DNA of 64,000 bases, from positions 11,458 to 75,457 of the IMG/VR virus record IMGVR_UViG_3300028888_000115; one strand, written 5' to 3'. Below, piece by piece: positions 7,416-56,377 of this stretch (positions are counted from its first letter, which is position 1; every line of letters begins with the position of its first letter). Source of the stretch: a virus. Taxonomy: Duplodnaviria > Caudoviricetes. The position numbers and the translations under genes were made by a program. The notes beneath the pieces were generated by a model. That model was given only the letters and a program-made list of their open reading frames with translations. It was not told the DNA's origin and searched no databases.

Positions 7416-7694
7416 ATGCTGAGTAAGAAGGTTGCTGCTGAGAAGCTGGCTCGCTGGGAAGAACTCTCCGCGCTCGAAAAAGAGATCCTTGCTGAGAAGA
7501 GTGCCATCGAGGATGACTTCAAGCAGGAACTCGATCGCAAGGGCGTCGAGATTCTGGAAGTCGGAAACAAGAAGGTCCGCTGGACCTCTGTGGTGTCCAA
7601 CCGCTTCGACAGCACCGGCTTCAAAAAGAGTTTTCCTGAGCTCTACAAGGCTTGGACGAAGGCTGTTCCGTCTCGCCGGTTCTCGATTGGCTGA
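7416..7694 (+). CDS. hypothetical early protein
   Basis: GTGAGG RBS, ATG 7416. Confidence 0.8.
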   Translation: MLSKKVAAEKLARWEELSALEKEILAEKSAIEDDFKQELDRKGVEILEVGNKKVRWTSVVSNRFDSTGFKKSFPELYKAWTKAVPSRRFSIG

Positions 7695-7924
7695 TGACTG
7701 AGATAGACACTTGGGTTGGCGGGTGCAAGGTCCGGGCGTTCGATTGGATCGACGGAAAAAGCATTTACATAAACGTCCGGTACTTTGCCCCGGGGCAATC
7801 ACTTGAACGATCTCCTGCGATGGAGCGGTCGGTGTTGATTCCGAAGACGCCGGAGAACGAAGACAGGATGAGGACTCATCTTCACAGTATTGTGGATGGG
7901 ATCATGAAAGGAGCGACGCGATGA
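7694..7924 (+). CDS. hypothetical protein
   Basis: TGATG coupling. Confidence 0.7.
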   Translation: MTEIDTWVGGCKVRAFDWIDGKSIYINVRYFAPGQSLERSPAMERSVLIPKTPENEDRMRTHLHSIVDGIMKGATR

Positions 7925-9795: not shown

Positions 9796-9999
9796 ATGGA
9801 AAACGAAGACATGATCAGCACCAAGAATCCGGAACCGTTTGTCATCCACGAGGAATACTACCAGCCTTCCGAAAGAGCGCCTATCTTCGACGACCTGGAA
9901 GCTCTCTTGGAAGGAGCAGCAAAGCTCCACGAAGCGCATGATTTCGGTCACGCGGTCGGCCTGGTCTATCTTGCACTGGAAAAGGTGCGCTCAGTCTGA
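9796..9999 (+). CDS. hypothetical protein
   Basis: GAGG RBS. Confidence 0.65.
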   Translation: MENEDMISTKNPEPFVIHEEYYQPSERAPIFDDLEALLEGAAKLHEAHDFGHAVGLVYLALEKVRSV

Positions 10000-10227
10000 A
10001 GACGCGGCCTTTTCAATTTTGGAGTCCGGGACGTATTCGATAAGCTTTCCGGGTTGCTTGCCAGTGATAGCGCAGATCCGGTCAAGCGTATCAAACGAGA
10101 TGGACTTGCTCTCCTGAATGTTCCGGACGGTTTGAACGCCGATAATCTTTTCGCGGCGCAGACGATAGGTGGAATACCCGCAATCCTTCAAAAGCTGGAT
10201 CGGGTCAACACGCCAACGTATAGCCAA
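9991..10227 (-). CDS. XRE/Cro-C1 HTH repressor (copy 2)
   Basis: LKDCGYSTYRLRREKIIGVQTVRNIQ...ISFDTLDRICAITGKQPGKLIEY; AGGAGGT RBS and TTG start; paralog of 7003-7239. Confidence 0.88.
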   Translation of the reverse strand: MAIRWRVDPIQLLKDCGYSTYRLRREKIIGVQTVRNIQESKSISFDTLDRICAITGKQPGKLIEYVPDSKIEKAASSD

Positions 10228-10251: not shown

Positions 10252-10288
10252 TATACTAATTTTAGTACATAAACGAAATTTTGTCAAC
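10252..10288 (-). promoter_or_regulatory. promoter/operator of XRE copy 2
   Basis: TTGACA on minus strand (10283-10288); operator TATACTAATTTTAGTACA 10252-10269. Confidence 0.65.
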
Positions 10289-12737: not shown

Positions 12738-12966
12738 GTTCCACTATGAATATCTGTGCGCTGCCGGGTGGCGTGAGGAAAAGGTCAAACAAATTGAGAG
12801 TTATGCGCAACTTGACGATCTGACGGCGGAGTGCCAGAAGAGAGGATGGACGATTCTCGAAAATCCGATTTGCCGGAGCTGCGCCAAGTTTCCGGAAGAA
12901 TGTCCGGGAACGAGAAATCACATCTGGACAGGATGCGTCAACAGGAAAGAGAGGGTGAACACATGA
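12730..12966 (+). CDS. small Cys4 protein (paralog B)
   Basis: NPICRSC...ECPG..NHIWTGCV. Confidence 0.7.
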   Translation: MFEFHYEYLCAAGWREEKVKQIESYAQLDDLTAECQKRGWTILENPICRSCAKFPEECPGTRNHIWTGCVNRKERVNT

Positions 12967-14018
12967 CGGAGAAAGAAATGCGGGCAGAGATGACGGAAAA
13001 GATGCTGAGTGGGGAAGGAAGGGTCTATCTGGATGCGATCACTTGGAAGTCCGACCGTCTCCAGTGGCTTCTGAAGGAATCGGAGACGAGAAACAAGAAA
13101 CTCTCCGAGGTGACCGGGATCAGGGAGAGCTCTCTGAAGATGTACGAGTCCGGATGGGCAAAGCCGGGGCTTGGGGCGATCATCAAGCTTGCGGACTATT
13201 TCCACGTTCCGGTGGATTTCCTGCTTGGCCGGTGCTCGGAGCGGGAGGATAATGAAATCTTCGAGCACTTCGCGGACTATTTCAGGGTCCTGCGAGACGC
13301 GTCTTATGACGCATATCTGATCAACAAGTACGCCGGTGACGACTACATCAAGAGCGATAAGGTCTTCTCATGGCCGTACAACTTGGTAGAGAACATCTAC
13401 CGCGTGGAGGGAAACGAGGCGGTGGAATGCAGCCTTGACGGTCTCAAAGAAGCGATCTCTACTCTGACAGACAGAGAACAGCGCATTGTTTACATGAGGT
13501 ATCGGGAGGACATGACGCTGGATGAGATTGCGGCAGAAGAACAGGTAGGCCGCGAAAGAGTCCGGCAGATCCTTGCAAAAGCGTGCAGGAAGCTACGACA
13601 TCCTACCAGAATTCGCCTGATCCAGTACGGGATTGCCGGGACGGAGAAGCTTCGTGAGCTTCGGGACAGGGAGCGAGAAATCGTCGCCCGGGAGCAGGAA
13701 CTTGATGACCGGGAGGCCGCGATTGCGGAGCGTGAAAAGGCGCAGGGCGTCCCAGTGCCGGAAAAAAAGGAACCGGCAAAGCCGGATGAACCGCTGAGCA
13801 ACCTGCGGCACGAGATTGAGGATTACGACCTGTCGGTCCGGTCCTACAACTGCCTGAAGCGAGCCGGATGCAAAACCATGGAGGACGTTGCGAAGGTGGC
13901 GGAAAGCGGGGGCCTGCTGAGAATCCGGAACATGGGCAGACGGTCGGCAGAAGAAGTGCTTGGGGTTCTGAAGGAAAAGTGCGGGCTCGATTACTCGGCT
14001 CTCTACTTTGCAGCCTGA
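12963..14018 (+). CDS. XRE HTH + sigma70 region 4 + RNA polymerase alpha-CTD fusion
   Basis: LSEVTGIRESSLKMYESG...LADYFHVPVDFLLGR (XRE); LTDREQRIVYMRY...TLDEIA...RERVRQI (sigma4); IEDYDLSVRSYNCLKRAG...IRNMGRRSAEEV (alphaCTD). Confidence 0.85.
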   Translation: MTEKEMRAEMTEKMLSGEGRVYLDAITWKSDRLQWLLKESETRNKKLSEVTGIRESSLKMYESGWAKPGLGAIIKLADYFHVPVDFLLGRCSEREDNEIFEHFADYFRVLRDASYDAYLINKYAGDDYIKSDKVFSWPYNLVENIYRVEGNEAVECSLDGLKEAISTLTDREQRIVYMRYREDMTLDEIAAEEQVGRERVRQILAKACRKLRHPTRIRLIQYGIAGTEKLRELRDREREIVAREQELDDREAAIAEREKAQGVPVPEKKEPAKPDEPLSNLRHEIEDYDLSVRSYNCLKRAGCKTMEDVAKVAESGGLLRIRNMGRRSAEEVLGVLKEKCGLDYSALYFAA

Positions 14019-15813: not shown

Positions 15814-15880
15814 TACTCTAAAATTTGTACATATTGCGAATTGCAAATGTTCTAAAATTAGTGTATATTATAGATGCTGG
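15814..15880 (+). promoter_or_regulatory. early promoter P3 with two operators
   Basis: Operators 15814-15831 and 15848-15865; TTGCAA 15841-15846, 17 bp, TATATT; ATGCTGG. Confidence 0.75.
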
Positions 15881-33161: not shown

Positions 33162-33481
33162 CAACGACAGAACTGATTGCATTGTTGAAAAAGAACGAGT
33201 TCGGCGGAGCAACCGGCAGACCGAGAGAAATCTCTTTCAGATTTCGCGACATGCTGATAGCGGACCCGGATATCGAGGTTGTTGGCACCGGTGACGGACT
33301 CATCACGGACATTGAGCTGGAACTGGTACAGGAAGACAACAGCAGAATCTATTTCAGCGACGGAGAAGAATACGAAGACCTCCTGATGAGATACAAGGCC
33401 CTTGGAACGCCAGAAGAAATTGAGGCCGTTATCGACAAGCGGCTGATAGAGATTGCGGAAGATCAAAGGCGGGAAGTGTGA
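33158..33481 (+). CDS. hypothetical protein
   Basis: GGAGG RBS. Confidence 0.65.
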   Translation: MTTTELIALLKKNEFGGATGRPREISFRFRDMLIADPDIEVVGTGDGLITDIELELVQEDNSRIYFSDGEEYEDLLMRYKALGTPEEIEAVIDKRLIEIAEDQRREV

Positions 33482-33984
33482 TGGCCGATAAACCGAAACT
33501 CTTTGTCATGTGCGGCATGAGCGGCAGCGGGAAAACGACGTTCGCAAAGCGATTTTGCGAAACGAGGGAACTCAGATACCTCAATCCGGATCAGTTCTAC
33601 GAACTGTTCAACGGAGACGAGCGAAACCACAGCAATGAGTTTGATGTCTGGATGGCAGTTTATCGGGCCTTGCATATTGCCGAGCAGGAGAAAGTCGATA
33701 CAATCCTTGACACAAACTGTCCGTCCTTCTCTGGACGAAACCAACTGATCGAATTCTTCCCGGACTTTGACCATCACCTCATCGTGATACAGGCGGATCT
33801 GGACCTTTGCCTGAAAAACAATGCCAAGAGATACAGGCAGATACCGGAAAACGAGATGCGGCGAATGTGGACCGCCTTCCAGTATCCGGAGATCAGCGAG
33901 TGGAAATACTGGAAGAGCATGATCTGGTACCGCAACATGAACAACCAAGGCTTCCAGCAGATGCACATGATCAGGCATATATAA
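33481..33984 (+). CDS. P-loop kinase (AAA_33 / polynucleotide 5'-kinase-like)
   Basis: MCGMSGSGKTT, LNPD, ILDTN, CLKNNAKRYRQIPE. Confidence 0.8.
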   Translation: MADKPKLFVMCGMSGSGKTTFAKRFCETRELRYLNPDQFYELFNGDERNHSNEFDVWMAVYRALHIAEQEKVDTILDTNCPSFSGRNQLIEFFPDFDHHLIVIQADLDLCLKNNAKRYRQIPENEMRRMWTAFQYPEISEWKYWKSMIWYRNMNNQGFQQMHMIRHI

Positions 33985-34017: not shown

Positions 34018-34085
34018 GGCACTAATATTTGTACATATTGTCAATTGAAAATCCGGATGCTTTTTGGTATACTGTAGATGCTGAG
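34018..34085 (+). promoter_or_regulatory. early promoter P5 with operator
   Basis: GGCACTAATATTTGTACA 34018-34035; TTGAAA 34045-34050, 17 bp, TATACT; ATGCTG. Confidence 0.75.
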
Positions 34086-42357: not shown

Positions 42358-42386
42358 TTGACGTATGTCTAATTTTAGTGTATAAT
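42358..42386 (+). promoter_or_regulatory. sigmaA promoter with operator in spacer
   Basis: TTGACG-17-TATAAT; ATGTCTAATTTTAGTGTA 42365-42382. Confidence 0.75.
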
Positions 42387-42432
42387 TCAAACATAACCGA
42401 AAAGCATTTGATGAAAGCCACACAGTTCACTC

Positions 42433-42490
42433 TTTGTTCATGAAAGTGACACCTTGCCGTGTTAAAATGACTATGATGGAGAAAGTGTAG
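42433..42490 (+). promoter_or_regulatory. 58-bp conserved element (putative late promoter), copy 1
   Basis: Near-identical to 62221-62278; first 21 nt identical. Confidence 0.7.
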
Positions 42491-42512
42491 ATACACTCCG
42501 AGATAGTAATTG

Positions 42513-42547
42513 AACGCGGCTGAGAGAAGCCGCGTTTTCCTTTTTTT
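42513..42547 (+). terminator. leader terminator-like hairpin
   Basis: AACGCGGCT/AGCCGCGTT followed by T-tract. Confidence 0.7.
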
Positions 42548-46477: not shown

Positions 46478-46951
46478 ATGGAACTGATTCAGGTCCCACT
46501 TGACCAACTGAAACCTTATCAAAACAACCCAAGATACAACGATGACGCGATTGACGCGGTCGTCGAAAGCATTGATCAGGTCGGGTACATCACGCCGATT
46601 ATCGTGGATGAAAACTGGCAGATCCTTGCCGGTCATTCCAGATGGAAGTCGTTGAACGAACTGGGTGAGGACAAAATTGACGTCATCCTCGTCCCGGGAC
46701 TGACCGAAGAGCAGAAGCGTAAATTCCGACTGCTGGACAACAAGACGGCGGAGATTGCGTCGTGGGATCTCGATAAGCTCCAAGAGGAACTGGAGATGGT
46801 CGATTTCGGCGGCTACGATTTCTGGTCAAAGGAACTGGAACAGATGGCCGACAACCTGATCGCCGACAAGCCGAAGAAGAAAGTGATCATCTGCCCGAAG
46901 TGCGGAAAAGTTGTGCAGGGCTTGGTGGATATGGACCAATACGACGAATGA
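46478..46951 (+). CDS. ParB/Srx N-terminal domain protein
   Basis: LKPYQNNPR..SIDQVGYITPIIVDE...ILAGHSR..RLLDNK. Confidence 0.88.
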   Translation: MELIQVPLDQLKPYQNNPRYNDDAIDAVVESIDQVGYITPIIVDENWQILAGHSRWKSLNELGEDKIDVILVPGLTEEQKRKFRLLDNKTAEIASWDLDKLQEELEMVDFGGYDFWSKELEQMADNLIADKPKKKVIICPKCGKVVQGLVDMDQYDE

Positions 46952-46952
46952 T

Positions 46953-47411
46953 ATGGAAAAACATCTTGTAACTATGAAACTGAGCGAGATTATTCCCTAC
47001 AAGAATAATCCTCGTAAAAATAAAAGCGCGGTCAAGACCGTTGCGGAGAGCATTCGACAGACCGGATACAACAATCCGATTATTGTAGATGAGAACAAAG
47101 TGATTCTGGCCGGACACACAAGGCGTCTGAGCCTGATTCAGCAGGGAGTAGAAGAGGTGCAGGTGCTTCAGGTGCTTGGACTTTCTGAGACTGCCAAGAA
47201 AAAGTTCCGACTTCTGGACAACAAGGTCGGAGAGTTCGCGTCGTGGGACTACGTTGCTCTGACAGAGGAACTTGCAACGCTGGATTTTGGCGGTCTGGCT
47301 CTGGACTGGGGCATTGAGTTCAACATGGACGACGCGGAGCCGAAGGAAAAGAAAAAGAAGGAAAAGCCGGAGTATGTCTGCCCGGAGTGCGGTTTCCACT
47401 TCAAGGCCTGA
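46953..47411 (+). CDS. ParB/Srx N-terminal domain protein (tandem paralog)
   Basis: IIPYKNNPR..SIRQTGYNNPIIVDE..ILAGHTR..RLLDNK; C-terminal CPEC. Confidence 0.88.
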   Translation: MEKHLVTMKLSEIIPYKNNPRKNKSAVKTVAESIRQTGYNNPIIVDENKVILAGHTRRLSLIQQGVEEVQVLQVLGLSETAKKKFRLLDNKVGEFASWDYVALTEELATLDFGGLALDWGIEFNMDDAEPKEKKKKEKPEYVCPECGFHFKA

Positions 47412-47420
47412 GGTCGAAAG

Positions 47421-47873
47421 ATGGTAGAACTGACACCGAGCTGCATGGACAGAAATCTGTTCATGAGAATGGCAAAGGATTATGTGGATACCCTCAGCCA
47501 ATATGATCACGAAATCAAGTGGGATGAACTGGCTTGGGAACAAGGGATGTGGTACTCACAGTTTATTGTAGAGGACCGGACTGTGCAGGGATTCATACAG
47601 ACTGAAATCGTCCCGTTCAACGTTTTTCCGAGTGCGTTTTATATTGCTGAGTTCTATGTTGTTCCTGAGGCAAGGCACCGGCACATCGGTACGGAGGCCG
47701 TAAAGGCCGCTACTCAGTCGTGGAGCGGGGATGCGTTTTTATATATCCTCGACAAAAATGTTCCGGCACGCTTCTTCTGGACCGATGTAGAGGCGGAACT
47801 TGGATGGAAGCGAATAGAAAGACCGGAGATCCGAAAAGAATCCGGATGTGAGCTCAGAGTGTACAAAACCTGA
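47421..47873 (+). CDS. GNAT-fold acetyltransferase
   Basis: YIAEFYVVPEARHRHIGT; N..ARFFW. Confidence 0.7.
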   Translation: MVELTPSCMDRNLFMRMAKDYVDTLSQYDHEIKWDELAWEQGMWYSQFIVEDRTVQGFIQTEIVPFNVFPSAFYIAEFYVVPEARHRHIGTEAVKAATQSWSGDAFLYILDKNVPARFFWTDVEAELGWKRIERPEIRKESGCELRVYKT

Positions 47874-47887
47874 AAGGATGAGAAAGC

Positions 47888-49021
47888 GTGGATGACATTG
47901 TAAAGAAATACCGCATGCGCCGAGATGCAAGGATTGCGGCCAAAAAAGCCCACGCGGACGACCAGTGGATCACAATGCGAGGAACGCATGTCCTGATAGA
48001 CGACGGCGGGCAGGTATCAAAGGGGCCTGAAAAGCTGAAAAACGTCGTGAAGCAGGGCGGCGGGTACAAGTCAAAAGCTGACCGGAAGTACGGAAGCAGC
48101 GACAAATACAGCAAGGCGATGAATAACGGCTGGAATGTGAAACCAGCCGTGGAACAGACAAAAAGAGAACGAAGACCGCTTGCAGACATACACAAAGAGT
48201 TTGAAGACAACAGGTACCGTCTGGAAGACTCTTTGAAGAAACGCGACAAGGCCAAAGAAAACTATGAGATGAGCAATGGCAATTACGATTTGTACATGGA
48301 TGATCCGGGAACGTCTGAAGAGTTCAAAGAGATGTTCCGGAAAGACCTTGCCATGACTCAGAAAAAATATCATGAAGCAAAGAGCGAAGTAGACCGGCTT
48401 TCGGAGAAAGACAGAGCCTTGAAAAAAGAACTGTCTGAAGAGCGCGACGCGGTCAAGAAAGAAGACCAAGCGGCAATCAGGTCCGGTCCTGTGGCATACG
48501 TCAGGTCTGAAAAAGTCGTTACGGCGATTCGCGGCAACGAGAGCTTGATCAGAAAGAAAGATTACGAAAAAGGAGCTTGCGTGGACAAAAACGGCAGACT
48601 CTTGTTTGAGGCAACTGACGGCAAAGCGAGTCAGATCGACCTTGAAGCGTATAAGGACAAACTGAAAGACACCGTGTTCACGCATAACCATCCCCGGGGT
48701 TCAACACTCAGCGTGGATGACGTCAGCTGTGCCGTCGCTCATGGAATGGCGGAAGTGAGGGCTTGTCATCGAGACGGTGCATACTCTCTTGTCAGGCAGT
48801 ATTCGCTGGATGGCGAAAAGCCTGCAAATTACATGGACTTCGCTTGGGACTATCAGGAAAGCGTCGCAAAGTATGACCGCGAAGTTATCGATCCAATCTG
48901 GAGGCGTGGACCGCAGGTACAGGAAACTGCGGACAGGTGCAATAAAATGTACGACGATTACCGCCGTCTGTGGCTGGAACTGAATTCGAAGAAATACGGA
49001 TGGATTTATTCGGAGGAGTAG
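47888..49021 (+). CDS. putative capsid-cargo protein 2 with C-terminal JAB/MPN-like domain
   Basis: IVKKYRMRRDARIAAKKAHADD leader; WITMRGTHVLID motif; FTHNHPRGSTLSVDD. Confidence 0.7.
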   Translation: MDDIVKKYRMRRDARIAAKKAHADDQWITMRGTHVLIDDGGQVSKGPEKLKNVVKQGGGYKSKADRKYGSSDKYSKAMNNGWNVKPAVEQTKRERRPLADIHKEFEDNRYRLEDSLKKRDKAKENYEMSNGNYDLYMDDPGTSEEFKEMFRKDLAMTQKKYHEAKSEVDRLSEKDRALKKELSEERDAVKKEDQAAIRSGPVAYVRSEKVVTAIRGNESLIRKKDYEKGACVDKNGRLLFEATDGKASQIDLEAYKDKLKDTVFTHNHPRGSTLSVDDVSCAVAHGMAEVRACHRDGAYSLVRQYSLDGEKPANYMDFAWDYQESVAKYDREVIDPIWRRGPQVQETADRCNKMYDDYRRLWLELNSKKYGWIYSEE

Positions 49022-49446: not shown

Positions 49447-50103
49447 ATGAACATCGTAAAATCTGCAATTGTCATCGAAGACGGTCCGGAATACGACAAA
49501 CTGCTCCAGAAGATCGAGCGGATCGGACGGACCTGCTACAAGAGCGAAGACCAAATCGGCATTGGGAGTGCCGAGAAATTTGTCAACCGCCTGATTGCGT
49601 CCGGTCACGAGTCGGTCATCGAACACGGGAGCATCACGGTGAGAGTAATCTGTGATCGTGGAGTCAGTCACGAGATTGTCCGGCACCGGCTGGCGAGCTA
49701 CAGCCAAGAGAGTTCGAGATACTGCAACTACACGGCGGATAAGTTCGGAAACGAGATTACCGTCATTGATATAGCAACAGGTTTTCAATATGACCTGTCA
49801 AGTGAAAAAGACATCAAGAAATACCAGATCTGGACCCAAGCAATGCTGGACGCGGAGAAGCACTACTTTGAGATGATCGAAGCCGGTGCAAAGCCGGAAG
49901 AGGCAAGAAGCGTGCTTCCGAACTCCACAAAGACAGAGATCGTCATGACGATGAATCTCAGAGAGTGGAGACACTACTTCCGGATGAGATGCAGCAGCAG
50001 GGCCCATCCGCAGATTATCGAAGTCAGCAAAATGATTCTCAAGGTCTTTGCGGAACGCTATCCTGCATTCTTTAGAGACCTTGCGCAGGAATACTCCGCC
50101 TGA
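49447..50103 (+). CDS. thyX: FAD-dependent thymidylate synthase
   Basis: GRTCYKS, GHESVIEH, VSHEIVRHRLASYSQESSRY, ARSVLPN, NLREWRH. Confidence 0.95.
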   Translation: MNIVKSAIVIEDGPEYDKLLQKIERIGRTCYKSEDQIGIGSAEKFVNRLIASGHESVIEHGSITVRVICDRGVSHEIVRHRLASYSQESSRYCNYTADKFGNEITVIDIATGFQYDLSSEKDIKKYQIWTQAMLDAEKHYFEMIEAGAKPEEARSVLPNSTKTEIVMTMNLREWRHYFRMRCSSRAHPQIIEVSKMILKVFAERYPAFFRDLAQEYSA

Positions 50104-50136: not shown

Positions 50137-51330
50137 ATGGAGAGACATGTAGCAGCCTACAAGAGGCGCAGAGCACAAAGGCTCTGTGAGCGATACGGAT
50201 TCAGATATGACTCGTTGAATTTAGATTCAGGACTTGGCTGGCTGTTTGGTCTTGCCACGGATCTTGGAATCAAGACAAAGGGTATGAAGATTCCTGAAAT
50301 CTTCAAGGCTGTGAATGAGAAGCGTGCCCAGAAAGGGCTTGAACCTGTTGGACACAAGGGAAATGTTTCCGGAAAGAAGGGTTCATTCAAGCAGACAAGC
50401 CGGAAGGGACCGGAGGTCAATCAGTCCCTCGTGTCCAATGCGAAGGAGGAAGCCAAAAAGAATATGGCGACCTCCTACAAAACTGCGAGCGGAGCTAATT
50501 TCCCGAAGCCAAAGGCTGGCGCGAAGTTTGACAACAGTGTTATGTCCGGCGTTGAAAAGAGCGCAAAGGATCTCGGAAAAGAAAAGGAATTTGACGACAT
50601 CGTGAAGAGCCTGAAACCGACCGATTATGTCTATATGAAAGACCCCGTGACGGGTGATCAGGTTGCTTCCGTTCCTGGCTTGGCTCAGCGTTTCGATAAG
50701 ACAATGACCGGGCGGTCAGAAGAGTGCCAGAGGATCTACGACCAGAAAATCAAGAAGGGCGCACAGATCTCGAAAGACATGATTGATGCAGTCAACGGAA
50801 TCGGGTGCCGTCTGTCCGGACTGGAGAACTGCTTCAAGGGCGGCGACTCCACGTCAAGGAAGATTTCTACCAAACGCAGCGAGGCAGAAGCAAGAGGAAA
50901 AGAAACCAAGACGGACGAAGGATACACTGCTGGTTTTGGTGATATCATCCGATTCACGGCCTTGTGTGACCACGATGACATCGCAGAAACGGTGACAAAG
51001 CTGGAAAGCGCTATGCAGAAGAAGGGCTATGAGCTCAACGAAAGAGACAATAAGTGGGTTACCGGAGACGGCAGCTACAAAGGCGTGCATGTTGAATTCA
51101 TTTCTCCGACAGGCGAGCGTTTTGAGGTTCAGGTACATTCTACTGTCGCTCTGGCATTCAAAAACAAGGGTCACAGATACTACGACAATGCACGCGTGGA
51201 AGACGTGAGCACTGCGAATGGCAAGAAGCGCCACGATGCCGCCATTGAGAAATGCAAGAGCATCTGGAAGACTTGCCCGATCCCCAAAGGAATTGAGGAC
51301 CTGAAACCGATCCCCAAAAAGAAACGGTAG
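50137..51330 (+). CDS. putative capsid-cargo protein 3 with C-terminal RelA/SpoT (toxSAS-like) synthetase domain
   Basis: HVAAYKRRRAQRL..FRYDS leader; FKGGDSTSRK, GDIIRF, SYKGVH, FEVQVH, GHRYYD. Confidence 0.82.
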   Translation: MERHVAAYKRRRAQRLCERYGFRYDSLNLDSGLGWLFGLATDLGIKTKGMKIPEIFKAVNEKRAQKGLEPVGHKGNVSGKKGSFKQTSRKGPEVNQSLVSNAKEEAKKNMATSYKTASGANFPKPKAGAKFDNSVMSGVEKSAKDLGKEKEFDDIVKSLKPTDYVYMKDPVTGDQVASVPGLAQRFDKTMTGRSEECQRIYDQKIKKGAQISKDMIDAVNGIGCRLSGLENCFKGGDSTSRKISTKRSEAEARGKETKTDEGYTAGFGDIIRFTALCDHDDIAETVTKLESAMQKKGYELNERDNKWVTGDGSYKGVHVEFISPTGERFEVQVHSTVALAFKNKGHRYYDNARVEDVSTANGKKRHDAAIEKCKSIWKTCPIPKGIEDLKPIPKKKR

Positions 51331-51344
51331 ATCGGATATTATCC

Positions 51345-51373
51345 TTGACAATGTACTAAAATTAGTGTATAAT
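51345..51373 (+). promoter_or_regulatory. consensus sigmaA promoter with operator in spacer
   Basis: TTGACA-17-TATAAT; TGTACTAAAATTAGTGTA 51352-51369. Confidence 0.85.
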
Positions 51374-51394
51374 GACCATGGAGGTGAGCGGGCT

Positions 51395-51643
51395 TTGAGT
51401 GTGAGAAAAGAAGTGTTCTATTATCAGGATCGCGATGACGATTCAGGGATTGCTCGTTCGGTTCGTGATGAGACCGGGACCGACTATCAGTTCTGGAACT
51501 ATGAGAAGCACGACTGGGTATCTCCGAAAGATTCGATTGCGATGGACTTCTGCCATGACTACGACAACACGCGCGTGATCAGTGAGGAGGAGGCAAAAAA
51601 GGCAATCGAAGAGGCTGAAAAGGAGATTGAAAGCCGAAAGTAA
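51395..51643 (+). CDS. small protein, putative antitoxin of the toxSAS
   Basis: GGAGGT RBS, TTG start; W..W...D...RVISEEEA. Confidence 0.6.
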   Translation: MSVRKEVFYYQDRDDDSGIARSVRDETGTDYQFWNYEKHDWVSPKDSIAMDFCHDYDNTRVISEEEAKKAIEEAEKEIESRK

Positions 51644-51655
51644 GGGGATGGTAGC

Positions 51656-52075
51656 TTGATTTCGATGGTCTGGCAGGCAGAGGCCTTTGCGAAAGAAAGG
51701 CACTTTGGACAGTTTGACCGCGCCGGAGTTCCGTATATCGAGCATCCGCGTGCGGTTGCGGCGAAGGTGGACACGGATACGGAAAAGGTTGTCGCGTTCC
51801 TGCACGACACGGTGGAGGACACCAACACAACGCTGGATGAGATCCGGAACAAGTTTGGCACTGAGGTCGCGGACGCGGTTGAATGCCTGACTCACAAAAA
51901 GGGTGTTCCGTATATGGAATACGTCAAGGGAATCAAAACGAACGACCTTGCGCGGAGGGTGAAACTGGCGGACCTGAGCCACAACATGGATCTGAGCCGT
52001 CTGCCGAAGGTGACCGATGCAGACCTGAAGCGCGTGGAGAAATATAAGGCTGCTTACGACTTTCTGGTCGAGTAA
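51656..52075 (+). CDS. small alarmone hydrolase (Mesh1/SAH-type HD protein)
   Basis: H.GQFDRAGVPYIEHP, AFLHDTVEDT, VKLADLSHN. Confidence 0.9.
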   Translation: MISMVWQAEAFAKERHFGQFDRAGVPYIEHPRAVAAKVDTDTEKVVAFLHDTVEDTNTTLDEIRNKFGTEVADAVECLTHKKGVPYMEYVKGIKTNDLARRVKLADLSHNMDLSRLPKVTDADLKRVEKYKAAYDFLVE

Positions 52076-52170
52076 AGGCCGACCGGGCGTTCGTTCGAGA
52101 TAGATAACGAGATTATAAGGACGACGCTCTGAGGGGTGCCGTCCTATATTTTTGCATAGGACGGTGCGAG

Positions 52171-53886
52171 ATGGAAAAGAGCCGAGCGAAAGCGATTGCG
52201 GACTACCGCAGGAGAAGAATACAACGGCTGAGAGCCAGGTTCGACGATGATAACGACGAGAACAATGCCCCGGCACCGGCTGGCGGGCATGGAAATACAA
52301 AACTTCCGTTCGGACTTTGCCGGAGGGAAGGCATCAAGGTAGACCCGACATGGACCCCGAAGGATGCGTGGAATGCTCTGGAAGGCAAGGGATACTCTGC
52401 CAAGGAAGCCTATAAAGAACTGAAGGAAACCGGCAAGGTGGCTCCGAGAGCACCGCAGAAACCGGTGAGGACTCCTGCTGAGATCAAGAAGATGGGCAAG
52501 TCCGTTTCCGACCTGAAGAAGGCTATGAAGAAGCGGGATAAGCTCGAAAAGGACCTTTCGACGGCCAACGTCGAGATTTCGAGAGCGATTAACACCAAAA
52601 CGAGGTATGAGTCCGCATCCGAAAAGTACAAGAAGATGGCCGACGAGATGGTCCAAAAGTACGGTTCCGAAGAAAACATCCCTTCAAAAAGAGAGGGAGA
52701 ATACGGCTATCCTCCTTTGGCGAGCTATCAACTGTATCGTGACAACGAGAGAAGCTATGCCAAGGACGCCGAGAACATTGGAAAGACGCTCCCAGACCTG
52801 ATGCGGAAGCACGAGGATATTCAGAAACAGTTGGCTGAGTATCCGAGCAAAGAAGATCACAAGAAACAGTATGATCAGGCGGTTGACGACCTGCTGTCCA
52901 GTTCGCCGTACACCGACAAGGTGCGAGACTATAGAACAATCGAGGAAGAGTCAGAAGGCGCGAGGGTGATTCTGGAAGAGGCAAAGAAAAAGGTCTCATA
53001 CGCCCAATCGCATATCGAGTTCTATGAGTCGATGGCCCGGAGAGCAAGAGAACGTGGAGACGAGGAAACCGCGAAGTTCTATGAGGGCAACGGTCTTGCT
53101 TCCAACAGAAAGCTTCTCGAAGTCAATCAGGCCAATGTCGACAAGTACTCCAAACAGGTCGAGGACTATGACAGACGGATGAACGAGGCAAAGGGCGACG
53201 CTGCGGACAAGGACTGGAAGCAGATTTATGAGCTTTCGGTCGAGAAAGACACCGTGCAGGATGGACCATACACCGAGCTTGAAAGAGCGGCTGAATCTCT
53301 GTCAAGGGAAAAGGTCAAATACGTTAATCCGGTCAAGTATATGACTCCGCCGTCAGAGGAGAAGATCATCTTCGACCTGCGCGGCAGTGACAAGACAAGC
53401 GGCTCCTGCGCTTCTCTGGCGTTTGCCTATTTCGTAAACAAGTCCGGATACAGGGTGCTTGACTTCCGTGGCGGAGCATCACGACGGTTCTTCTCGTATA
53501 ACTGCGGTGATGTGATCCGGAGACTTGGCGGAACGGTCACACACGACAGCGACGGCTTCAAAATCGCAAAAGACCATCTTTCGCAGGTGGAAGAGGGCAA
53601 GGAGTACTATTTCGCGGCAGGAAAGCATGCTGCGGTTGTCAGAAAGAAAAACGGAAAGCTTGAGTTCCTTGAACTGCAAGACAGAACTGGCGGATGGGAA
53701 GAGCTCAATGACTCCGTTCTCAAACAGCGGTTCAAGGTCAAAAGGACCAGTCGTCGCGGCAGTGAGTATTCGTATCTGATCAGCGGAGACAAGCTGACCG
53801 GAAATAAAGAGCTTATTTCCCTGACGGGATATATCAATACGGCATCGGACAAGCAGAAGAAAGGCGCTGGGGGTGGTATCAAGTGA
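52171..53886 (+). CDS. putative capsid-cargo protein 4 with C-terminal papain-like cysteine peptidase domain
   Basis: AIADYRRRRIQRLRARFDD leader; GHGNTKLPFGLC module; GSCASLAFAY..VLDFRGG..GKHAAVV..LELQ. Confidence 0.75.
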   Translation: MEKSRAKAIADYRRRRIQRLRARFDDDNDENNAPAPAGGHGNTKLPFGLCRREGIKVDPTWTPKDAWNALEGKGYSAKEAYKELKETGKVAPRAPQKPVRTPAEIKKMGKSVSDLKKAMKKRDKLEKDLSTANVEISRAINTKTRYESASEKYKKMADEMVQKYGSEENIPSKREGEYGYPPLASYQLYRDNERSYAKDAENIGKTLPDLMRKHEDIQKQLAEYPSKEDHKKQYDQAVDDLLSSSPYTDKVRDYRTIEEESEGARVILEEAKKKVSYAQSHIEFYESMARRARERGDEETAKFYEGNGLASNRKLLEVNQANVDKYSKQVEDYDRRMNEAKGDAADKDWKQIYELSVEKDTVQDGPYTELERAAESLSREKVKYVNPVKYMTPPSEEKIIFDLRGSDKTSGSCASLAFAYFVNKSGYRVLDFRGGASRRFFSYNCGDVIRRLGGTVTHDSDGFKIAKDHLSQVEEGKEYYFAAGKHAAVVRKKNGKLEFLELQDRTGGWEELNDSVLKQRFKVKRTSRRGSEYSYLISGDKLTGNKELISLTGYINTASDKQKKGAGGGIK

Positions 53887-54970: not shown

Positions 54971-56377
54971 ATGGCGACAAGGACTCTGCGTCCCCAAGAA
55001 GGTCCGCAGACGGCTTTTCTTGCCAGTTCGGCTTCTGTAACCATATATGGCGGAGCTGCGGGCGGAGGAAAGACCTACGCCGAGCTTTTGGCACCGCTGA
55101 GATACAAGGACGTCAAGGGCTTTAACTATACCATTTTCAGACGCGAGTATAAGCAGATCTTCAACGCTGGCGCACTCTGGGACGAGGCGATGGAGATGTA
55201 CTCCGGAATCAGGAGGGCCGTGCCGAAGTACACGACCGGTCAATGGCTGTTCCGGGACAAAAAGGGAAGCGTCGTATCGAAGATTACCTTCGCCCACATT
55301 GAGAACGACCTTGCGGTCCACACCTATCAGGGCTCACAGCTCTGCGGCATTGCTTTTGACGAGCTGACGCACTTCACGGAAAAGCAGTTCTTCTATATGC
55401 TGACCCGTAACAGAAGTACCTGCGGCGTGCCTCCGTTCGTGCTGGCGACAACGAACCCGGATGCGGACTCTTGGGTGGCTGAATTCATCTCATGGTGGAT
55501 TGATCAGGTAACTGGCTATGCGATCCCGGAGAGAAGCGGTGTGATTCGCTGGATGGTCCGAATTGACGACAAGGTCAGATGGGGCGATTCCCGGGAAGAA
55601 CTGATAGAGACCTATCACCTGACTACCAAAGAAGAACTGGCGATGATCAAGTCGGTGACCTTCATTGCTTCGAGCATCTATGACAACAAGGCCCTTCTGA
55701 AATCTGACCCGTCCTACCTTGGCAACCTGATGATGCAGCCGGAAGTCGAAAGAGAAAGACTTCTCAAAGGAAACTGGAAAATCAAGGCGGCAGCGGGACT
55801 CTACTTCAAACGCTCTCAGGTTACGATGGTGGATGAAGATCCATTGATGATGAGGGAGATTGTCCTGACGTGCAGAGCGTGGGACCTTGCGGCAACAGAA
55901 GACGACGCGGCAAAAGACCCGGACTACACGGCTGGCGTCCTGATGGGCCGATTCAGGAGCGGAGAAGTGATTGTTCTGGATGTGATCAATCAGAGAGTCA
56001 AGGCTGGCGAGGTCGAAAAGCTGATCTACAACACGACCGTAGCGGATGCGCAGAAATACGGCTTTGCCTACAGAGTCCGTATCCCTCAAGACCCGGGTGC
56101 GGCAGGAAAGATCGTTGCAAATTCCTACGTGCAGAAGCTTTCCGGGTACTCCGTGATCACGGAGAGGGTAACCGGAAGCAAGGTCAACAGGGCAACGCCG
56201 TTTGCGGCCCAGTGGCAGAACGGACACGTAAAGGTTTTGAAGGGCGAGTGGAATGATATGTACTTCAAGCAACTTGAGTCATTCCCAGAATCCAAGCACG
56301 ACGATATGGTCGACGGTAGCTCTGACTCTTTCAACGAACTGAGCAAGCCGCTGTTTGACCCGAGCAATCTCATATAA
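54971..56377 (+). CDS. terL: terminase large subunit
   Basis: YGGAAGGGKT, AFDELTHF, ATTNP, RAWDLAA, HDDMVD. Confidence 0.95.
   Translation: MATRTLRPQEGPQTAFLASSASVTIYGGAAGGGKTYAELLAPLRYKDVKGFNYTIFRREYKQIFNAGALWDEAMEMYSGIRRAVPKYTTGQWLFRDKKGSVVSKITFAHIENDLAVHTYQGSQLCGIAFDELTHFTEKQFFYMLTRNRSTCGVPPFVLATTNPDADSWVAEFISWWIDQVTGYAIPERSGVIRWMVRIDDKVRWGDSREELIETYHLTTKEELAMIKSVTFIASSIYDNKALLKSDPSYLGNLMMQPEVERERLLKGNWKIKAAAGLYFKRSQVTMVDEDPLMMREIVLTCRAWDLAATEDDAAKDPDYTAGVLMGRFRSGEVIVLDVINQRVKAGEVEKLIYNTTVADAQKYGFAYRVRIPQDPGAAGKIVANSYVQKLSGYSVITERVTGSKVNRATPFAAQWQNGHVKVLKGEWNDMYFKQLESFPESKHDDMVDGSSDSFNELSKPLFDPSNLI

Follow-up and report, generated by a model that had tools for sequence, protein, structure and literature searches.

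A putative Apk-type toxin gene of a temperate gut-type phage is followed by predicted antidote genes behind their own operator-bearing promoter

The stretch of DNA analysed here, called the window throughout, comprises 64,000 nucleotides (bases 11458–75457) of the 75.5-kb IMG/VR virus record IMGVR_UViG_3300028888_000115, whose completeness is estimated at 80%. A tyrosine integrase gene stands at the start of the record, so that the source phage, which is of gut type, is temperate. Three genes follow one another on the plus strand of the window: a toxin gene of 397 aa (50137–51330), encoding an N-terminal leader, a disordered linker and an alarmone-synthetase domain of the Apk/EAS type of the RelA/SpoT homologues (RSH); a small immunity-like gene of 82 aa that resembles Tis1/IapK (51395–51643); and a gene of 139 aa for an HD hydrolase of the Aph1 family, predicted to be (p)ppApp-specific (51656–52075). 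The 64-nt gap between the toxin and the immunity gene, between 51330 and 51395, holds a consensus sigma-70 promoter (51345–51373, plus strand), in the spacer of which lies a palindromic operator-like motif (51352–51367). A preliminary description of this locus had listed a synthetase, a promoter, an 82-aa open reading frame (ORF) and an HD hydrolase, and all four elements were found where it had placed them.

The toxin gene starts with the ATG at 50137, behind the ribosome-binding site GAGGTGA. In a phmmer search of the PDB its product gave one real match, 8vx3 (SaEAS, the exported alarmone synthetase of Streptomyces albidoflavus), with E 1.3e-7 over residues 192–395, and a profile built from 13 toxin homologues matched the same entry with E 3e-14. 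The AlphaFold2 (AF2) model of the protein has a mean pLDDT (predicted local distance difference test) of 84.8; in it the N-terminal helices (residues 1–65) are weakly predicted, the linker (residues 73–89) is disordered and a confident domain begins at about residue 95. This confidently folded region, delimited by the AF2 model, Foldseek and tblastn, corresponds to residues ~95–397 (50419–51330, plus strand): residues ~190–395 are the part that aligns to SaEAS, Tas1 and the Apk2 toxin domain, and residues 95–190 form a lineage-specific N-terminal subdomain. Foldseek ranked 8vx3 first (E 2.7e-10, template-modelling (TM) score by target 0.80–0.82), followed by Tas1 (6ox6_A, E 7.7e-7) and then by RelP, SAS1 and Rel, and CapRel (7ztb) appeared only at rank 32, with E 1.2e-3 and a TM score of ~0.2. 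When the toxin domain was compared by tblastn with 50,697 phage records, it was found only as the C-terminus of proteins annotated as 'head morphogenesis / minor head', with 25–29% identity over 84–95% of the domain and E down to 4e-11, in phages of Streptococcus (S. pneumoniae), Pasteurella (P. multocida), Mannheimia (M. haemolytica), Haemophilus and Aggregatibacter. The C-termini of these MuF proteins are the group that has been characterised as Apk2 (PMC10083569, PMC12226406). By these comparisons the predicted toxin is closest to SaEAS, to Tas1 and to the Apk2 toxin domains that MuF proteins of phages carry.

Across the 13 homologues the catalytic motifs of the toxin are invariant or nearly so (K234..S238..K242, D269..R272, Y314..H318 and E330-V-Q332), and the aligned counterpart of D269 in SaEAS is the catalytic D121, mutation of which was used to inactivate that enzyme. 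A RelA/SpoT synthetase with intact motifs had been proposed for this gene at the outset, and both the fold matches and the invariance of the motifs bear this out. As regards the product, a published signature covers the syn2, syn3 and syn4 motifs, which read R-Y-T, G-x-N and Y-H in Apk and A-V-R, S-x-H and I-R in RSH enzymes. The window toxin has R-F-T in syn2, G-V-H in syn3 and V-H in syn4; syn2 and syn4 are thus Apk-like, whereas syn3 (A-x-H in the homologues) is a hybrid of the G-x-N of Apk and the S-x-H of RSH, and because of this hybrid the product is not settled by the toxin sequence.

The partner hydrolase is more telling in this respect. It matches the Pfam family HD_4, and its best match in the PDB is 7smg_A, the (p)ppApp hydrolase Aph1 of Bacteroides caccae, with E 1.7e-27 over residues 8–139, as against about 4e-12 to 4e-13 for human MESH1. 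The H..HP, HD, D and N motifs do not vary among 4 homologues. The signature of (p)ppApp specificity described for Aph1 consists of D24, R96, D116, R119, K133 and Y134 (Ahmad et al., PMC10083569), five of which (D24, D116, R119, K133 and Y134) are kept in the window hydrolase. The sixth, R96, is replaced by Gly here and is Gly, Arg or Lys in three aligned relatives; in Aph1 it was not placed near the active site, and a double mutation of D24 and R119 broadened the specificity of that enzyme so as to permit hydrolysis of ppGpp (PMC10083569). On the strength of the E-values and of the signature residues we rejected the earlier assignment to the Mesh1 type of small alarmone hydrolases, keeping that of an HD hydrolase antidote, and the protein is predicted to be a member of the (p)ppApp-specific Aph1 family. 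Since its partner belongs to this family, the product of the toxin is most likely (p)ppApp, and not pyrophosphorylated tRNA; the Aph1-type hydrolase is the strongest, if indirect, argument for such a product.

The small ORF starts with a TTG at 51395, 8 nt past the sequence GGAGGTG (51380–51386), and encodes 82 aa. A longer version starting from the GTG at 51365 was rejected, since that start lies inside the −10 box of the promoter and the longer reading frame would be absent from its transcript. A word-indexed homologue search with the small ORF returned only itself, its sequence searches gave nothing past near-identical copies, and searches of the PDB with the single sequence and with a profile of 4 sequences yielded chance matches only. 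Orthologues taken from syntenic loci are ~29% identical to it and keep a V-x-Y-Y-Q-D start and two Trp residues. The AF2 model, built from only 4 sequences, has a pLDDT of 82 and consists of a small beta-sheet and a C-terminal helix. When it was aligned by VIA-align to 48,161 representative chains, the immunity protein Tis1 (6ox6_B) ranked first, with a Z score of 4.4 that is low and lies within 1 of those of the next rows, a root-mean-square deviation of 4.1 and 67 of 76 residues aligned. Moreover, hhalign aligned the small ORF family with five IapK proteins of canonical Apk2 phages over 63 columns (probability 67%, E 5e-5). We therefore take the small protein, with moderate confidence, as a distant relative of Tis1/IapK; the suggestion that the ORF is an antidote candidate is upheld by this weak but consistent likeness.

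The promoter identified by the consensus scan between the toxin stop and the immunity start, TTGACA-17-TATAAT, is the only perfect match to TTGACA-N16-18-TATAAT within the 64 kb, where 0.02 would be expected, and it does carry in its spacer a repeated phage motif, as had been claimed. No terminator was found between the toxin stop and this promoter, so that transcription may also read through from the toxin gene. The immunity and hydrolase genes are 12 nt apart, no promoter was found in this 12-nt gap, and a single promoter precedes both genes in the window. The claim of two separately promoted antidotes was accordingly rejected for the window in this form: the antidotes are promoted apart from the toxin, but not from each other. 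It is true, instead, of two relatives of the module (L005 and L020), in which a second promoter, scoring 11/12, stands ahead of the hydrolase gene and each antidote has its own.

The relatives are metagenomic and IMG/VR loci (labelled L) whose toxins are 35–62% identical to that of the window; the search of IMG/VR contributed 5 loci, and 185,579 representative prokaryote genomes were scanned without yielding any toxin relative. In every relative locus examined the toxin is followed by a small ORF. L001, L003, L005, L013, L015, L018, L019 and L020 have a recognisable Aph1-like HD gene, and none was recognised in L012 or L014. Compared with L001, L003, L015 and L018, the window has 59–62% identity for the toxins and 61–67% for the hydrolases, but only 28–31% for the small proteins; the same pattern, a specific and fast-evolving binding immunity as against a conserved and universal enzymatic one, was reported by Paulet et al. 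(PMC12226406). In L018 (4174–4665) a single perfect promoter precedes a tandem pair of small immunity genes. The first of these shares 88% identity with the cognate immunity of the L015 toxin, which is itself 98% identical to the L018 toxin, and the second is 55% identical to the immunity of the window, though the L018 toxin is of the L015 type; this second gene is thus an orphan immunity, a hallmark of polymorphic toxins. The gene immediately preceding the toxin is Phage_Mu_F in L005 and L014 and a portal–NUDIX fusion in L012 (2750–5041); the upstream ORF of L019 is MuF-like by eye only. As a matter of speculation, the NUDIX domain of L012 might be an alternative product-degrading enzyme. In L013 (2175–4943) an ADP-ribosylglycohydrolase gene and the gene of a 626-aa ADP-ribosyltransferase toxin precede the Apk-type triad immediately, and are predicted to be a second pair of toxin and enzymatic antidote in the same block.

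A strong sigma-70 promoter just upstream of the small immunity gene or of the hydrolase gene was found in 10 of the 11 relatives sampled. At the same toxin–immunity junction as in the window it is perfect (12/12) in L001, L003, L015 and L018, and promoters of 10–11/12 precede the immunity gene in L005, L019 and L020; that of L012 is weaker (9/12, perhaps with an extended −10). In L013, where toxin and immunity are coupled, a perfect 12/12 promoter stands before the hydrolase only. Of the 12 plus-strand promoters that score at least 11/12 in the relatives' loci, 8 are directly upstream of the immunity or the hydrolase gene. Thus, promoters of 10–12/12 with 17-bp spacing recur at the same junction across toxins that are 35–62% identical, and the intergenic sequence that flanks them differs. 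By contrast, no promoter was found in three canonical Apk2 phages, in which the three genes are translationally coupled, being 1–2 nt apart or overlapping. In L005 the second promoter lies in a spacer of 289 nt (7506–7794) that separates immunity from hydrolase, and the block upstream of this promoter (ATGTTGCCAAAAT..) repeats the one preceding the immunity gene; ARAGORN found no tRNA in this spacer.

The motif in the spacer of the antidote promoter has the core ACTAA-AA-TTAGT, and at the same promoter position L001 has the perfect 14-bp palindrome CACTAATATTAGTG. L003, L015 and L018 keep the palindrome while the intergenic DNA around it differs. Allowing at most 3 mismatches, the 16-nt spacer motif occurs in 5 copies in the window, at 10254 (minus strand), 11745, 15848 (plus strand), 34020 and 51352, where 0.23 are expected, and the more complete phage G001, 98% identical to that of the window, has 7 exact copies of the palindrome against 0 for a reversed control pattern. 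Two further plus-strand promoters share the architecture, with the motif in the spacer: one at 15834–15869 (TTGCAA-17-TATATT) and one at 42358–42386 (TTGACG-17-TATAAT, 11/12), the spacer of which contains a sixth copy of the motif. The copy at 10254 overlaps the −10 box of the 11/12 promoter of a minus-strand gene (9991–10227) that encodes a 78-aa Cro/C1-type helix-turn-helix (HTH) protein of the HTH_26 family, and this protein is a candidate for the regulator that binds the operator. Between the promoter at 42358 and the first gene whose protein bears the N-terminal leader described below (ATG 42560) lie a leader of ~150 nt and, just ahead of that gene, a strong intrinsic terminator (42513–42547); the layout of 42358–42547 recalls the PR'/Q antitermination of lambda. 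A 168-aa AAA_33 or Zeta-toxin-like kinase gene (33478–33984, plus strand) adjoins the palindrome copy at 34020–34035 and a 10/12 promoter at 34045.

The N-terminal leader of the toxin, delimited by leader alignment and profile search, takes up about residues 1–68 (50137–50340, plus strand) and consists of a basic helix, Y-K/R-x-R-R-x-x-R-L, and a degenerate FGL..GI.. module. It is common to the products of the ORFs at 52171, 56403 and 58037, with a weaker likeness at 47888, and hhalign of the leaders of the toxin family with those of the other proteins gave a probability of 97.3% and E 1.8e-11, so that the toxin is indeed leader-bearing, as first described. In a database of 1.84 billion representatives, the leader profile matched 402 representative clusters at E ≤ 1e-3 and 171 at E ≤ 1e-10; the matches are almost always N-terminal, in proteins of 81–1886 aa. 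In 94 leader-bearing proteins nearly all C-terminal domains are unnamed in Pfam, the named ones being one ADP-ribosyltransferase (Bxa), one DUF7675 and one Methylase_S, and in PHROGs the leader-bearing proteins fall mostly on C-terminal portions of 'head morphogenesis' families. Phage_Mu_F (PF04233) has no match in the 397-aa toxin, nor anywhere in the 75-kb record. A stand-alone MuF of ~313 aa is present in G001, some 16 kb downstream and just past the end of the window; a 'MuF-independent system' was therefore rejected, whereas the statement that the toxin is not fused to MuF stands. The leader is also found on genes around the terminase, the portal and, in G001, the stand-alone MuF. A locus of G001 (L021, G001:105177–108482) has, in this order, a 260-aa leader-bearing protein, the stand-alone MuF (313 aa) and a perfect TTGACA-17-TATAAT with the palindrome; this promoter, at L021:1883, drives a 459-aa leader-bearing protein.

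What has been published as the 'bicistronic immunity' of the Apk2 toxins (PMC10083569, PMC12226406) is this same association of a toxin with Aph1 and a small immunity like Tis1/IapK. The trio of the window falls firmly, as judged from its predicted proteins, in this Apk–IapK–Aph1 kind, and its arrangement is not new in kind; we hold the identity of the three genes to be highly probable. Like the Apk2 modules, that of the window is phage-borne, has the same gene order, with a toxin domain, an immunity of ~70–80 aa and an HD hydrolase of ~140 aa of the Aph1 type, combines a homologous toxin domain (25–29% identity) with a homologous hydrolase that carries the specificity signature, and pairs a fast-evolving small immunity with a conserved hydrolase. 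What is new is that the toxin bears a leader and is not fused to MuF, and that the antidotes have a conserved, operator-bearing promoter separate from the toxin. Apk2 toxins are fused to MuF, and the window toxin has instead a leader of ~70 aa and the extra subdomain (residues 95–190); Apk2 genes are 1–2 nt apart or overlap, and here 64 nt with a perfect promoter and operator lie between toxin and immunity; the Apk2 module sits after the portal, and that of the window upstream of the terminase.

Other known systems are less close. Tas1/Apk1–Tis1, a type VI secretion system (T6SS) pair of P. aeruginosa (6ox6), shares the toxin fold, and Tis1 is the best structural match of the small ORF model, but this pair is delivered by PAAR/T6SS, has no hydrolase partner and is less similar to the window toxin than is SaEAS. 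The latter (8vx3, PMC12691689) is the closest solved structure by both sequence and fold and has in common a syn4 of the E-V-Q-x-H type. The exported alarmone synthetases carry modular N-terminal delivery domains (Sec, LXG, PAAR, MuF and DUF4157; PMC12691689), and the leader of the window toxin is outside these five. The toxic small alarmone synthetases (toxSAS) of type II toxin–antitoxin (TA) systems, namely FaRel, FaRel2, PhRel, PhRel2 and CapRel, are likewise RSH-fold toxins neutralised by an adjacent protein, and a small alarmone hydrolase is able to serve as their antitoxin. However, they are stand-alone TA or defence modules, several of them targeting tRNA, CapRel is a distant structural match to the window toxin, and, unlike them, the window module has traits of polymorphic toxins: a shared leader, an orphan immunity gene and a phage head context. 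Colicin operons likewise place immunity after the toxin and express it from a constitutive promoter of its own as well as by read-through transcription. Colicins are plasmid-borne bacteriocins under SOS control, whereas the immunity promoter of the window carries a phage operator.

The explanation that we consider best overall, with a probability of about 60%, is that of an Apk-type phage polymorphic-toxin module with a separately regulated antidote cassette. The 397-aa protein would be an adenosine 3'-pyrophosphokinase-like synthetase, most likely converting ATP/ADP to (p)ppApp; the 82-aa protein a fast-evolving Tis1/IapK-like inhibitor, probably binding and blocking its cognate toxin; and the 139-aa HD protein an Aph1-type hydrolase that would clear the product of whichever toxin variant is present. 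The antidote genes would form a cassette of their own behind a perfect promoter for the host RNA polymerase. Because the spacer palindrome recurs at phage promoters, including that of the Cro/C1-type HTH gene, the antidotes would be transcribed independently of the toxin once the operator is unoccupied, on entry or induction, and expression of the toxin gene would transcribe them once more by read-through.

Several observations weigh against this explanation or parts of it. Pfam detected neither RelA_SpoT nor any other family in the 397-aa toxin at E ≤ 0.01, and its homology was therefore drawn from the PDB, PHROGs and tblastn; the hybrid syn3 motif has been mentioned above. For the small ORF, Foldseek found nothing at E ≤ 0.001 with the model, to which the low Z score from a model of 4 sequences has to be added. 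L014 has no strong promoter at the module. In the diverged phage G003 a second exact copy of the operator is not beside an HTH gene and matches the site of the 11745 type. In the window the toxin lies amid ParB-like, GNAT and ThyX genes, upstream of the terminase and outside the head module. Moreover, operator-bearing consensus promoters also precede leader-bearing cargo genes (at 42358 and L021:1883); this class of promoters therefore serves more than antidotes, the cargo is perhaps not 'late' in a strict sense, and a clear-cut division into early antidotes and late cargo is weakened.

The leader may have a role in delivery, recruiting 'cargo' proteins to the procapsid for ejection with the DNA. 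Following this idea, the toxin could be made late, packaged in the virion and ejected, and the antidotes made at once by the host RNA polymerase, as the preliminary description had it; we regard this proposal as tentative, its chances being clearly below even. It plausibly fits the placement of the promoter, its conservation, the head-module position in relatives, the shared leader and the orphan immunity of L018. A fuller version, in which the leader is a docking tag that loads a changing set of effectors, including the (p)ppApp synthetase, beside the stand-alone MuF and portal for ejection with the DNA, the antidotes are immediate-early and end a short host shutdown imposed by the toxin, and extra immunities such as that of L018 record warfare between phages, is in our opinion rather doubtful.

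One alternative is that the module acts only in the producing cell and nothing is packaged: the toxin would drain ATP or block purine synthesis for takeover of the host, or work as a prophage addiction or abortive-infection TA system, with the strong promoter keeping the antidotes in excess. The neighbourhood of the window toxin, which adjoins genes of nucleotide metabolism and DNA (ThyX, ParB-like and GNAT) and not head genes, would suit this alternative, and an antitoxin with its own, stronger promoter is the classical logic of TA systems and of colicin immunity. According to PMC12254948, moreover, it is not known what MuF toxins do in the phage cycle. The alternative is harder to reconcile with the position of the toxin directly after a portal or MuF gene in three relatives, with a leader that is carried by many unrelated C-terminal domains, these domains being found also as C-terminal extensions of MuF, and with the non-cognate extra immunity of L018, which would have little to do if the toxin stayed in its producer; we judge it unlikely. 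An equally improbable proposal, in part overlapping the explanation preferred here, is that the antidote cassette mainly protects lysogens from the toxins of superinfecting relatives, as an immunity moron, and is not an immediate-early lytic function. The phage is temperate, as its integrase indicates, an orphan immunity is present in L018, the perfect promoter of L013 serves the broadly acting hydrolase alone, and Aph1 enzymes are interchangeable between toxins (PMC12226406). However, the palindrome in the spacer of the antidote promoter is that of other phage promoters, including that of the Cro/C1-type gene, and if it binds the prophage repressor the cassette would be off in lysogens.

As to the chemistry, the toxin might pyrophosphorylate the 3'-CCA end of tRNA in the manner of FaRel2, PhRel2 or CapRel, with the HD protein reversing the modification. 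Several toxSAS do modify tRNA and small alarmone hydrolases are able to counter them, according to work cited in PMC12691689, and neither can the product be read from the sequence nor the substrate from the fold. CapRel is a far poorer structural match (E 1.2e-3, TM ~0.2) than SaEAS or Tas1, the sequence relatives of the toxin are Apk2 domains shown to make only (p)ppApp (PMC12226406), and the residues that give Aph1 its adenine specificity are retained in the partner hydrolase, all of which makes such an activity very improbable. Finally, the promoter-like sequence might not work as an antidote promoter, having arisen by chance or serving as a protein-binding site for some other purpose. Consensus scans are no evidence of function, and the predicted 5' untranslated region would be only ~15 nt long. 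Nevertheless, it is the sole perfect match in 64 kb against 0.02 expected, only ~0.008 such matches are expected per intergenic region by our own estimate, and the recurrence of 10–12/12 promoters with 17-bp spacing at the same junction, in phages with 35–62% identical toxins and differing flanks, leaves this reading with a very slight chance.

Descriptions of phage-borne (p)ppApp toxins that have two immunities date from 2023–2025, and the role of these toxins in the life cycle was stated to be unknown (PMC12254948, PMC10083569). The lineage considered here separates what the published modules fuse or couple, the toxin from MuF and the antidotes from the transcription of the toxin, and the separated parts offer experimental handles on whether the toxin is injected and on when immunity is needed. 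The leader, moreover, is carried by hundreds of phage proteins that have no annotation otherwise; should it be a packaging tag, these would be a large pool of candidate ejected effectors of gut phages.

As for the surroundings of the module, all on the plus strand, family scans assigned a ParB-like gene (46911–47411), a GNAT gene (47421–47873) and a ThyX gene (49447–50103) upstream of it, and a 377-aa protein without assignment is encoded at 47888–49021. Downstream follow the gene of a 571-aa leader-bearing protein (52171–53886), a DUF7675 gene and a probable small terminase, then TerL (54971–56377) and two further large proteins without assignment; the portal gene runs from 62332 to the end of the window. 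A megablast of the 46–58 kb region against phage records gave a sole, irrelevant match of 100 bp from Streptococcus. Just 3' of the hydrolase gene a 12-bp hairpin without a T-tract (52136–52167, plus strand, z −3.1) spans the Shine–Dalgarno region of the 571-aa leader-bearing gene, which starts with the ATG at 52171. Elsewhere in the window, a 395-aa protein (12831–14018, plus strand) combines an XRE-type HTH_3 domain, sigma-70 region 4 and the C-terminal domain of the RNA polymerase alpha subunit, a fusion that is unusual for a phage transcription factor.

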